From Bacteroidota bacterium (lineage in GTDB: Bacteria; Bacteroidota; Ignavibacteria; UBA10030; SZUA-254): a stretch of DNA of 64,000 nt. Both the position numbers and the translations under genes were made by a program. The notes under the pieces are model-generated. The model searched no databases and was not told the origin of the DNA. It saw only the letters and a list, made by a program, of their open reading frames with translations. Where the stretch lies: NCBI GenBank assembly GCA_035518715.1, contig DATIXJ010000017.1:420-64419 (forward strand). The letters run 5' to 3'. Below are positions 28,534 through 31,884 of the stretch, one piece after another (positions within the stretch are counted from its first letter, which is position 1; the number at the start of each line of letters is the position of its first letter).

Positions 28534-31500
28534 ATGAGCATGAGCATCCCAACGTCATTTACCCTTGCTGATATTCGTGTTACGAGAGCGATCCTGATCG
28601 TCCTCCTTGCGTTCGTTCCGTTGAGGGCCTTCTCCGGCCCGCCGGAAACCCGCGTCGTATTTGGACACCCTCTCAATTCAGCTCCGCAGCAGATCCGGCC
28701 CCGCATTGGTGCTCAGGTCTTTCCGGAAACAACGCATGTTCTTGCGGTGATGACGGATTTCGTGCAGGACAAGGACGATCGCACAACCGGAACGGGAAGC
28801 TTCGATCTTTCCGCGGCAACGAACGTCATTGATCCCACTCCTCATAACAAGGCATATTTTGATCAGCATGCCGCGTTTCTTCAGAACTATTTCCGGAAGT
28901 CTTCCGATGGCCGGTGCATTGTCGAAGTGACGGTCCTCGACAGTGTCTACCACCTTTCCCATAAGATGCGCTATTACAGTCCTTCGCCGAAAAGTCCCGA
29001 CAACCGCGAAATCGGATTGATGATGCAGGAGACCTGGCATCTCGTCGATTCGCTCAACCCGGGTTTTCCGTTTCGTCAGTATGATGTTTTTCTGATATTT
29101 CATGCCGGAGCGGGGAGAGATATCGACTTCGTCAGCATCTATGGATATGATCCGACACCGTTCGACATTCCCTCGATTTATGTCGGTCCTGCTGCGCTGA
29201 AGAAGATGTTCGGAAGCGCGTATGATGGTATTTCCGTGGGAAATGGTCTGGACACCATACGTAATTCTCTCATCATTCCGGAAACCGAAAGCCGCCCGCT
29301 CAGCGGAGGGGCAGGGACTTCGCTGCTTCAGCTTGGGATCAACGGACTTCTCGCAGCGACCTTCGGGAGCTCTCTCGGACTTCCCGATCTTTTTGATACA
29401 AAATCCGGAGCCAGTGGCATCGGGCGTTTCGGATTGATGGACGGTCAGTCGATTTTCAGCTGGAGCGGGATTTTTCCTCCACAGCCATCGGCATGGGAAC
29501 GCTATTTTCTCGGGTGGTCGACTCCGATCACCGTGAGCGCATTCGATTCTGTCTATACGTTTCCCGCGAGCAGTCTCCCCGGAGCCGAGGATTCACTGTT
29601 TCGTGTTCCGATCAGTGCGAGAGAATACTTTCTTGTTGAAAACCGCTGCCGCGATGCGCATGGTGACGGCGCAATCATCACACTTGTCCGCGACGGATCG
29701 ACCATAACGAAGACGTATCCTCGGGATTTTGATCCCGGTTTCAATTTCTCGAGCCAGGACTCCCTCTACGGTGTAGTTACCGATGTCGATGAATTTGACT
29801 GGAGTCTGCCCGGCTTCAGTCCGACCGGATCAGAAATGGCAAACGGCGGACTCCTCATCTGGCACATCGACGAAAATGTCATCGATGCGTCGATTGAGAC
29901 GGATGCCGTCAATGCCAACCCCATTGATCGCGGCGTCAATCTGCTGGAAGCGGACGGATCTCAGGATATCGGCCAAACCTACGATCTGCTCTCTCCGGGT
30001 TTTGGAAGCGAGAACGGAACCTCGATTGATTTCTGGTATGGAGATAACTCCGCACCGGCAAGGCGGATATCGAATGTCTTCTCGCCGACTTCGCTGCCGA
30101 GCAGCCGGAGCAATAATCAGGCGAATACACACATTGTGATTTCCGGATTTTCCCTCCGCGGCCCGTACATGACTGCCCGGATTCAGCTGGGAGACAATGT
30201 CGTTAGTCCGATTCCCGGGTTTCCGAAATATACCGGCATGAAGTTCGGCAGAAATTCGGTGACTATAATAAACGACAAGCCAACACCGGATTCGACTTCA
30301 CTCGTCGTTGCCACCGATGTCGTCGGCGTACAGCTGCCCGCCACTCCCACGGGATTGCCGATAAGCAGTGTCGGTGAATCGAAGCTCTACGGCTGGCACA
30401 TTGCCGGCGGGACTCCGCTCCTCACGACCGGAAGCGCCGACGGCCTTCTTGTGACCTCCGGGAATGCCTCTCGCGCATTTGTCGGTAAGCCCGTGGAGGG
30501 TAATCTCGCACAGAACGGTACTGCAGACTTGGCAATTGGGATGGTGGATAATGCAGTCTTTCTGCCCCCGGCTACTCCGCTCCAGAGCGCGAACACCGGC
30601 TGGGGTCTGCAGGATCTGAACAGCGACGGGAAAGCAGATTCACTCTTTGCCACGAAAACGTTCCGCAGGATCACAACCTCTCCGGTTCTATCGGATTCTT
30701 TTGTGGTTTATGGTGCGGAGCATGGGACGGTCTATATCTTTCGGTACGATGGCACCTTATCAGACAGCGTGACCAGTTCGCAGGATACCTCCGGGGTTGT
30801 CGGGATTTGCCTCGAGCCGAACCCTGCGGGAACATTTGTTGCAGTAACCATAAACGGTTCGTTCATCCAGAGTCCGGGACGAGGGTGTGTTCGAACAACC
30901 ATCACCGCGGGTTCTCCATTCCGCTCGGCGCTGCAACAAGGGTTGTCGCCGGCGGTGCTTGGAAGAACTCCGCCGTATAACCTGCGAACCGTCATGGTCT
31001 CGCCGGCGGGGATGGTCTACGATTTCAATGAGTGTCTGGGAATTGAAATGGGGTTCCCGGTGTCGACGGATGGAACAATTTCCAACGCCCCCGCAATTGC
31101 AGATATCGACGGTGATGGAAGCCCTGATATCATAGTGGCGAGCGGCAAGAAGATCTATGCGATCAACAATGCCGGCGCGGTTCTCGACAATTTTCCGGTT
31201 ACGCTGCCGACGTATCAAAATATCCTGAGCTCTCCAATTGTTGCTGATGTCGAAGGGAACGGCAGTGTTGATATTGTGGCGGTGACTCAGGAAGGTCTGG
31301 TCGTTGCGTACAATCGTTTCGGGAAAATGATCAACGGATTTCCGCTGCAGGGAGGTATCAACGGCGGTTCGACTCCTGCGGCGTTTCTCTTCAGGTCAAC
31401 CCAATGTCAGGGCTGCGAGGCAGCGATCGGTATTGCCGTTGCGTCGGACGACGGAAATGTGTATGCCTGGCAGACAGGAACGGTTGCATCGCTTGCAACC

Positions 31501-31884
31501 CCTGTGAAGATGCCCTGGCCGCAATATCTCCACGATGCTCAGAACAGCAGTATAGGAGATCCGGTTTCGGGAGGATCACTTCCCGCATCCGATTTCTTCC
31601 CGGCCTCCCGTGCGTACAACTGGCCGAACCCTGTCGGGAAGGAGCAGGCATTCAAGACTCACATCCGGTATTACGTCGGGACAGATGCACAGGTCCATAT
31701 CAAGATTTATGATCTGGCCGGAGAGATGGTGACGCAATTCGACGGCCCCGGTACGGGCGGCAGGGATAACGAGGTCGAGTGGGACGTTTCCGGGATTCAG
31801 AGCGGTGTCTATTTTGCACATATCGACGCGCAGGGATCCGGAGGAACCGGCAACGCCATCATCAAGATTGCGGTGGTGAAGTGA
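28534..31884 (+). CDS. Secreted M6-like pseudo-metallopeptidase with FG-GAP repeats and a T9SS C-terminal sorting domain
   Basis: 1116 aa with a signal peptide. M6 (immune inhibitor A)-type scaffold: VLAVMTDFVQDKDD, AATFGSSLGLPDLFDT in place of [16 protein letters not shown] (29353-29400), and LLIWHIDENV. FG-GAP-like repeats: ADIDGDGSPDIIVASG, ADVEGNGSVDIVAVT, LNSDGKADSLF. Type-A CTD at 31615-31881 (YNWPNPVGKE...IKIYDLAGEMV...SGVYFAHI...IKIAVVK). Confidence 0.7.
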   Translation: MSMSIPTSFTLADIRVTRAILIVLLAFVPLRAFSGPPETRVVFGHPLNSAPQQIRPRIGAQVFPETTHVLAVMTDFVQDKDDRTTGTGSFDLSAATNVIDPTPHNKAYFDQHAAFLQNYFRKSSDGRCIVEVTVLDSVYHLSHKMRYYSPSPKSPDNREIGLMMQETWHLVDSLNPGFPFRQYDVFLIFHAGAGRDIDFVSIYGYDPTPFDIPSIYVGPAALKKMFGSAYDGISVGNGLDTIRNSLIIPETESRPLSGGAGTSLLQLGINGLLAATFGSSLGLPDLFDTKSGASGIGRFGLMDGQSIFSWSGIFPPQPSAWERYFLGWSTPITVSAFDSVYTFPASSLPGAEDSLFRVPISAREYFLVENRCRDAHGDGAIITLVRDGSTITKTYPRDFDPGFNFSSQDSLYGVVTDVDEFDWSLPGFSPTGSEMANGGLLIWHIDENVIDASIETDAVNANPIDRGVNLLEADGSQDIGQTYDLLSPGFGSENGTSIDFWYGDNSAPARRISNVFSPTSLPSSRSNNQANTHIVISGFSLRGPYMTARIQLGDNVVSPIPGFPKYTGMKFGRNSVTIINDKPTPDSTSLVVATDVVGVQLPATPTGLPISSVGESKLYGWHIAGGTPLLTTGSADGLLVTSGNASRAFVGKPVEGNLAQNGTADLAIGMVDNAVFLPPATPLQSANTGWGLQDLNSDGKADSLFATKTFRRITTSPVLSDSFVVYGAEHGTVYIFRYDGTLSDSVTSSQDTSGVVGICLEPNPAGTFVAVTINGSFIQSPGRGCVRTTITAGSPFRSALQQGLSPAVLGRTPPYNLRTVMVSPAGMVYDFNECLGIEMGFPVSTDGTISNAPAIADIDGDGSPDIIVASGKKIYAINNAGAVLDNFPVTLPTYQNILSSPIVADVEGNGSVDIVAVTQEGLVVAYNRFGKMINGFPLQGGINGGSTPAAFLFRSTQCQGCEAAIGIAVASDDGNVYAWQTGTVASLATPVKMPWPQYLHDAQNSSIGDPVSGGSLPASDFFPASRAYNWPNPVGKEQAFKTHIRYYVGTDAQVHIKIYDLAGEMVTQFDGPGTGGRDNEVEWDVSGIQSGVYFAHIDAQGSGGTGNAIIKIAVVK

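Follow-up and report, generated by a model that had tools for sequence, protein, structure and literature searches.

Peptidases of family M6 are listed in subclan MA(M), and HExxHxxGxxD is the Asp-zincin motif (PMC3890501). Active M6 members in MEROPS carry HExxH, and M6 peptidases of the immune inhibitor A (InhA) type are found in Firmicutes and Vibrio. In the secretion system of type IX (T9SS), PorU and PorZ keep their C-terminal sorting domains (CTDs) (PMC10202324). PorZ (Porphyromonas gingivalis PG1604; PDB 5M11; NF052228) is composed of two tandem seven-bladed beta-propellers and a CTD, with no peptidase-like module (PMC5121618), and it binds A-LPS, an acceptor of the lipopolysaccharide (LPS) type (PMC8545088). 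The present work concerns a 64,000-nucleotide stretch of contig DATIXJ010000017.1 (assembly GCA_035518715.1) from a Bacteroidota bacterium of the Ignavibacteria, referred to here as the window. At positions 28534–31884 (+), the window contains an intact open reading frame (ORF) for a 1116-amino acid protein, the M6-like protein, which belongs to the family NF052323, "T9SS-dependent M6-like inactivated metalloprotease" (T9SSA_dep_M6i).

The M6-like protein matched NF052323 with 814.1 bits (E 1.9e-244) against an equivalog cut-off of 600. The better of its two matching stretches places aa 61–563 on model positions 38–557 of 1043, and the model was also matched by all 37 aligned orthologues. The traits of the family are all present, namely an M6-like domain without HExxH (site AATFGS) and a type-A CTD, and the protein is a full member that shows no difference from the family. 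Its identity, its dead active site and its dependence on T9SS are practically certain. The name of NF052323 itself conveys that the fold is M6-like, that the protein is inactivated and that it depends on T9SS; this description is therefore already known, and the novelty of the core observation is low. What is added here is the genomic context, which consists of a constant linkage to porU–porV and a divergence similar to that of PorU.

The dead zinc motif of the M6-like protein is AATFGSSLGLPDLFDT, at aa 274–289 (29353–29400, +), as determined from the codons and from alignment with orthologues and InhA2. When a 75-amino acid segment containing the motif was searched against PDB sequences, the best match was InhA2 of Bacillus anthracis (4yu5/4yu6). 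The alignment pairs GINGLLAATFGSSLGLPDLFDTK with the InhA2 site and GLMDGQ with SLMSGG. HAFGH in the deposited InhA2 structures is read as an E-to-A variant, judging by its sequence. Since the site aligns with HExxHxxGxxD of InhA2, the first His corresponds to A275 (codon 29356–29358), the Glu to T276 (29359–29361) and the second His to S279 (29368–29370). The original prediction had reported precisely these replacements (H to A, E to T and H to S) at 29353–29400, and they are accurate to the codon. It had also described the framework FG..LGLPD..DT as kept, and the two proteins indeed have xFGxxLGLPDxxDTK in common, together with the third-ligand Asp and the Met. Within the family, G282, D285 (the third ligand) and M302 do not vary, and they align with the corresponding G, D and M residues in InhA2. 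The possibility that an intact zinc site lies elsewhere in the protein was considered and rejected, as HExxH, HxxEH and HxxxH occur nowhere in the 1116 amino acids; the earlier statement that HExxH is missing from all 1116 residues thus holds.

More than 120 full-length orthologues of the M6-like protein were found, and the motif was compared in 186 family sequences, made up of 120 database proteins and ORFs from 66 of 82 related loci. The column of the first His contains A, S or G, that of the Glu contains S, N, T, M, I or A, and that of the second His contains S or N. His, Glu and His were found at the motif positions in none of the 186 orthologues, although LGLPDLF is essentially invariant and the third-ligand Asp is present in every one. 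The same substituted pattern was seen in orthologues from Kryptonia and from an Ignavibacterium album metagenome-assembled genome (MAG), which share only 33–35% identity with the window protein. The N-terminal domain was then searched exhaustively against 1.84 billion representatives, and at least 556 clusters (50% identity) matched it at E ≤ 1e-30. The N-domain relatives number 3651. Among the 148 best representatives of new, more distant 50% clusters, most of which are approximately 1000–1100 aa long and contain the CTD start motif, none has HExxH. In every member, H, E and H are replaced, in contrast to active M6 peptidases. Orthologues retaining HExxH and an alternative intact zinc site had been named beforehand as findings that would speak against a conserved dead enzyme, and neither was encountered.

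Conservation was expressed as the majority fraction per column, with a mean of about 0.5 for the whole protein. The M6-like domain (aa 63–335) has a mean of 0.70 with 52 invariant columns, and this dead-peptidase module and the CTD (0.72) are better conserved than the propeller. A sliding window identified aa 281–320 (29374–29493, +; LGLPDLFDT...GIGRFGLMDGQSIFSW) as the most conserved 40 residues, with M302 at the Met-turn position. This peak of 0.91, the highest of the whole protein, lies directly after the dead motif. A recent lesion or a decaying pseudogene of an active M6 peptidase would account for the missing HExxH and for nothing more; the 1116-codon ORF is intact, the substitutions are common to all 186 and 148 relatives, and the strongest conservation adjoins the dead motif. 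This explanation has almost no chance of being correct and was rejected on these three grounds. The loss of HExxH is, on the evidence of the aligned sequences, an ancient and family-wide conserved state and not a lesion, as had been proposed from the window alone. The pattern of conservation is presumably the signature of a pseudoenzyme selected for a non-catalytic task, namely binding.

The relationship to InhA was supported by profiles and by the predicted fold. The M6-like catalytic-type domain (aa 63–335; 28720–29538, +) matched TIGR03296 (M6 domain) with 52.4 bits (E 7e-14; curated cut-off 110.8) and PF05547 (M6) with 15.5 bits (E 0.011; cut-off 22). Both scores lie under the thresholds for curated M6 membership, and the homology itself is significant and no chance resemblance. 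TIGR03296 was matched by 37 of 37 aligned orthologues, with a best E of 7e-22. A model of aa 60–565 had a predicted local distance difference test score (pLDDT) of 80.7 and a predicted template modeling score (pTM) of 0.87. Foldseek matched it at E ≤ 1e-3 to four InhA2 chains only (E 1e-11 to 1e-10; TMq 0.48–0.53), and the next PDB match had an E of 0.02. The M6-like scaffold claimed in the original prediction is thereby supported. When the whole-protein model was used, InhA2 appeared at E 1.4e-9 amid many propeller matches. InhA was absent from the PDB-sequence matches of the full-length profile of 37 orthologues, which were FG-GAP lectins only; the link to InhA therefore required short-segment and fold searches. 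The beta-rich domains that follow (aa 336–560; 29539–30213, +) include LLIWHIDENV and EADGSQD, have a conservation of 0.70 and are aligned with the post-catalytic part of InhA2, the alignment with the N-domain model covering about 710 columns. VLAVMTDF and LLIWHIDENV had been called intact M6 landmarks. Both segments are conserved in the family, but aa 61–199 (containing VLAVMTDF) and aa 425–498 (containing LLIWHIDENV) gave no pairwise sequence match to InhA, so that the label of M6 landmark rests only on the fold match. In view of these alignments and models, the protein is best described as M6-like by homology and fold and not as an active M6 member. It also differs from InhA in its additional FG-GAP propeller and T9SS CTD, and its family occurs in Ignavibacteria and Kryptonia, whereas InhA-type M6 peptidases occur in the groups mentioned above.

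Many invariant polar residues are found in the N-terminal 500 aa, and the third-ligand Asp is kept. It can be imagined that H190, D196, E250, D285, D303, E322, H444, D446, E472 and D474 together constitute a catalytic or metal site of a new kind and that the protein is an enzyme of another chemistry. However, no known catalytic motif was recognized by Pfam or NCBIfam, and these polar residues may equally be structural or calcium-binding, which makes a new enzymatic activity very unlikely.

The remaining parts of the M6-like protein are those of a secreted T9SS protein. A Sec signal peptide at about aa 1–34 (28534–28635, +) was recognized by reading the sequence and by an AlphaFold helix at aa 11–32. 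Its predicted cleavage site lies between the S of ...LRAFS and the following G. After the signal peptide, a disordered linker extends to aa 62, with a pLDDT below 50 at aa 33–62. The beta-propeller region (aa 565–1000; 30226–31533, +) is modeled as all-beta at aa 569–984 and matched the FG-GAP profiles PF13517 at aa 857–915 (36.6 bits; cut-off 26.9) and PF01839 at aa 852–883 (23.2 bits; cut-off 22.1). Its second half contains the FG-GAP calcium-loop motifs DIDGDGSPD and DVEGNGSVD. Conservation is poor at aa 565–800 (0.36) compared with aa 800–1000 (0.59); in the calcium loop, D857 and D861 never vary, and at least 90% of the sequences share D859, G862 and D865. The type-A CTD (aa 1025–1116; 31606–31881, +) was modeled with a pLDDT of about 90–96 and matched PF18962 (27.1 bits; cut-off 27) and TIGR04183 (24.8 bits; cut-off 23). 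It shares 25% identity with the CTD of the adjoining PorU, and a search against PDB sequences gave only a weak match to the PorU CTD (E 0.26) and none to PorZ. The AlphaFold model of the whole protein has a pLDDT of 77.8 and a pTM of 0.78. The predicted fusion of an FG-GAP propeller with a type-A CTD was borne out, as all four profiles exceed their cut-offs. Everything that marks a substrate with a type-A CTD is found, that is, a Sec signal, a CTD above the cut-offs, and sprA, porU, porV and porX in the window.

A type-A CTD and a signal peptide are features of any T9SS cargo, and "T9SS-dependent" in the name given by NCBI says no more than that and means cargo. The best PDB sequence match of the family profile (E 1.7e-7) is the Psathyrella velutina lectin (PVL; PDB 2BWM/4UP4), which has calcium-loop FG-GAP repeats resembling those at aa ~850–930 of the M6-like protein. 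PVL differs in that it is a stand-alone fungal lectin, and only about 2–3 repeats align. The resemblance of the propeller sequence to carbohydrate-binding lectins of the PVL type is consistent with ordinary conserved surface cargo, which is the main rival explanation. In that case, the protein would be a CTD-cleaved surface adhesin or lectin for environmental or host polymers, and its position next to porU–porV would reflect co-expression. This must be taken seriously as an alternative, although it has the smaller chance. One uniform architecture over at least 556 clusters at 50% identity and an unusually conserved CTD argue against it, as do the following observations on gene order.

The window contains a T9SS island composed of porU, porV, the M6-like gene, genes for 219-, 1035- and 323-aa proteins, lptG/lptF on the opposite strand, sprA and porX. 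porU (23061–27197, +) encodes a C25-type T9SS sortase (NF033707, 937 bits; cut-off 420) and is kept upstream in related loci, and porV (27309–28448, +) encodes the T9SS outer-membrane shuttle (NF033710, 258.6 bits; cut-off 250). Synteny was scanned with one genome per species and loci of 20 kb, and the counts were taken from the best 80 loci. Relatives of the M6-like protein occur in at least 583 species genomes. Except for a few oddly labelled MAGs, the best 80 loci are of the Ignavibacteria type or Kryptonia. In all 75 loci with enough flanking sequence, down to 33% identity, porU–porV lies immediately upstream of the M6-like gene, and the Kryptonia and I. album MAG loci are among them. The predicted link of the gene to porU–porV is thus a physical adjacency that extends over the family. 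Over the 80 genome loci, the median identity to the window protein is 43% for the M6-like protein, 41% for PorU, 55% for PorV and 48% for SprA, which means that the M6-like protein diverges like PorU. The constant position and the PorU-like divergence speak against ordinary cargo, of which a patchier distribution would be expected, although this last point is only an expectation. Taken together with the highly conserved CTD, they suggest an accessory role, which they fit better than dispensable cargo.

The gap between porV and the M6-like gene bears on the cargo explanation in the opposite direction. In the window, it measures 85 nt and contains a strong RNA hairpin without a T-tract (28466–28511, +), with a minimum free energy of -43.2 kcal/mol for 28446–28536 and a z-score of -6.2. 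The gap is 3–8 nt in Ignavibacteriaceae, compared with 60–100 nt and strong structure in the window and many others, and many related loci have gaps of comparable structure (z ≤ -3). The hairpin separates the gene from porV, as would suit ordinary cargo, and it may stabilise the mRNA or act as an attenuator, and so set how strongly porV is expressed relative to the downstream genes.

In the MAG records, five loci with the typical cluster (L044, L069, L080, L019 and L067) appear under Synechococcus sp., Chromatiales, Acidobacteriota or Chitinophagales. They are probably mis-binned or mis-classified contigs of the Ignavibacteria type.

The favored explanation is that the M6-like protein is a dead M6-like member of NF052323 that serves as a binding accessory of the PorU/PorV step, and as a whole it is held with slightly better than even confidence. 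According to this explanation, Sec would export the protein, its CTD would be recognized and, once it had passed through SprA, PorV would deliver it to PorU at the cell surface. It would not hydrolyze peptides by the zincin mechanism. Most likely, the old substrate groove, perhaps with the calcium-loop face of the propeller, would bind a ligand instead of cutting it, because the most conserved surface surrounds the former active-site cleft, around which the conserved residues appear to cluster along the sequence. That the protein acts by binding is probable. It could then be a lineage-specific accessory of the sorting and attachment step of PorU/PorV in Ignavibacteria and Kryptonia, and what it retains for PorU might be cargo, CTD peptides or an acceptor molecule; this part of the explanation, taken separately, is a tentative proposal with somewhat less than an even chance. 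The 3–8-nt gap after porV in Ignavibacteriaceae and the presence of sprA and porX in the window also speak for the favored explanation. Several points weigh against the favored explanation. Conserved synteny can equally arise from the co-expression of abundant cargo with its machinery, and the NCBI name, as noted, denotes cargo. The gene in the window is closer to the genes downstream (gaps of 3 and 6 nt) than to porV with its 85-nt gap and strong hairpin. The clustering of residues at the cleft is based on position in the sequence and not on a three-dimensional measurement. Finally, a literature search found no paper on the family and nothing relevant on T9SS in Ignavibacteria or on T9SS pseudo-proteases.

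The original prediction had also proposed a functional analogue of PorZ. Such an analogue would keep its CTD, dock on a barrel of the PorV/PorQ type, bind a glycolipid acceptor with its propeller and present it to PorU. In both of these secreted T9SS proteins, a type-A CTD comes after a beta-propeller, and the M6-like gene lies in a PorU/PorV neighbourhood, adjoining porU–porV with lptF/lptG nearby. PorZ itself retains its CTD and delivers A-LPS (PMC8545088, PMC5121618, PMC10202324), and the high conservation of the CTD in the window family agrees with this plan. In the Foldseek search with the full-length model, PorZ (5m11) was ranked second (E 4e-12), and the PorZ hidden Markov model was weakly matched by 20 of 37 orthologues. 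However, the match of the window protein to NF052228 reached only 16.6 bits against a cut-off of 260 and involved aa 1022–1116 on model CTD positions 670–757 only; outside the CTD, there is no homology to PorZ. The TM-scores to 5m11 reach only 0.18/0.25, similar to those of dozens of unrelated propellers. The M6-like protein has one FG-GAP propeller region, unlike the two seven-bladed propellers of PorZ, and its best conserved part is a dead peptidase that PorZ does not possess. The claim of a PorZ analogue is consequently not supported by the CTD-only profile match and by a structural match amid generic propellers. It is an improbable special case of the broader and better-supported idea of a binding accessory. 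The PorZ and PorQ models were matched by none of the scanned window proteins, a scan that did not extend to the rest of the genome.

lptG and lptF, encoding LPS export permeases, are divergent and located at 36771–39246 (-), between the porU–porV cluster and sprA–porX (39550–48184, +). About 29 related loci show this arrangement. That LPS transport genes lie close to genes for T9SS sorting may have a bearing on surface attachment.

Three genes follow the M6-like gene on the same strand. The first (31888–32547, +) begins 3 nt after the M6-like stop and encodes a 219-aa protein, which gave a weak FlgD_ig-like match and bears an LSC lipobox-like signal. A tblastn search recovered it from only 16 of the 80 genome loci; it either evolves fast or is swapped for other small ORFs. 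The second (32554–35661, +), after a further 6 nt, encodes a 1035-aa protein in which a signal peptide, a Peptidase_MA_2 domain (HEFTH intact at aa 125) and a TolB/PD40 propeller precede an unannotated C-terminal region. It matched no NCBIfam equivalog, and its ~450 C-terminal residues have no family match; they give the impression of an outer-membrane beta-barrel when the sequence is read. One putative operon thus pairs a zincin with an intact HEFTH and a dead M6-like one. The third gene (35675–36646, +), present in 53 of 80 genome loci, encodes a 323-aa protein with a sub-threshold DUF5683-like match and is the last of the conserved same-strand cluster.

The tight translational coupling in the window, with gaps of 3 and 6 nt, raises the question of whether the M6-like protein could be a pseudoenzyme partner that regulates or targets the 1035-aa HEFTH peptidase or supplies substrate to it, perhaps together with the 219-aa lipoprotein-like product. 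Of 69 assessable loci, 66 have the gene for this peptidase-propeller protein downstream of the M6-like gene, with HEFTH kept. In three loci (L057, L059 and L079), porU–porV and the M6-like gene are kept without the downstream peptidase, which means that the link to porV is absolute and that to the peptidase is not. An interaction between the two proteins is putative, and a partnership of this kind is doubtful. A related proposal is that a pseudo-protease adaptor forms an integral, lineage-specific subunit of T9SS attachment and sorting in Ignavibacteria and Kryptonia, in the place of PorZ (and PorQ), possibly with the downstream HExxH peptidase-propeller. Such an adaptor would hold cargo linkers, cleaved CTDs or a surface acceptor through its fossil groove, its lectin-like propeller or both. 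This proposal is rather unlikely, with about one chance in a few.

Some other observations were made in the window. A near-consensus sigma-70-type promoter (22249–22277, +; TTGACA-17-TATATT, 11/12) and a terminator with a 14-bp stem and a T-run (22436–22467, +) are situated in the gap that separates a glgA-like gene (-) from a 179-aa ORF upstream of porU. They could delimit a small RNA of ~170 nt or a leader; Rfam and transfer RNA scans of the window gave no matches, including in 22249–22467. A gene at 18284–19549 (-) encodes a 420-aa protein that scored 240 bits against BamG (cut-off 250) and gave a weak N-terminal match to the PorV/PorQ family (26 bits). This BamG-like protein is kept upstream of porU in 28 of 80 genome loci, along with a DNRLRE-domain protein, a HAD hydrolase and the glgA-like gene, which looks truncated (285 aa, N-terminal half only). 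A serine palmitoyltransferase-like gene is located at 9342–10589 (+) and scored 480 bits against NF047600 (CFB type; cut-off 640), a similarity that hints at sphingolipid synthesis in the source organism.

The family of the M6-like protein is large and its place beside porU–porV is constant, with at least 556 clusters and at least 583 species genomes. Searches for peptidase families could count the protein as a secreted M6 metalloprotease. As it cannot be an active zincin, such a count in metagenome studies would overstate the potential for extracellular proteolysis ascribed to Ignavibacteria. The constant synteny with porU–porV and the PorU-like rate of divergence, both read from sequences, appear to make a T9SS-accessory role worth testing. 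If this role is true, the construction of the attachment step would differ in bacteria outside the classical Bacteroidia, and the M6-like protein would clearly exemplify the reuse of a protease fold as a binding module in a secretion machine.

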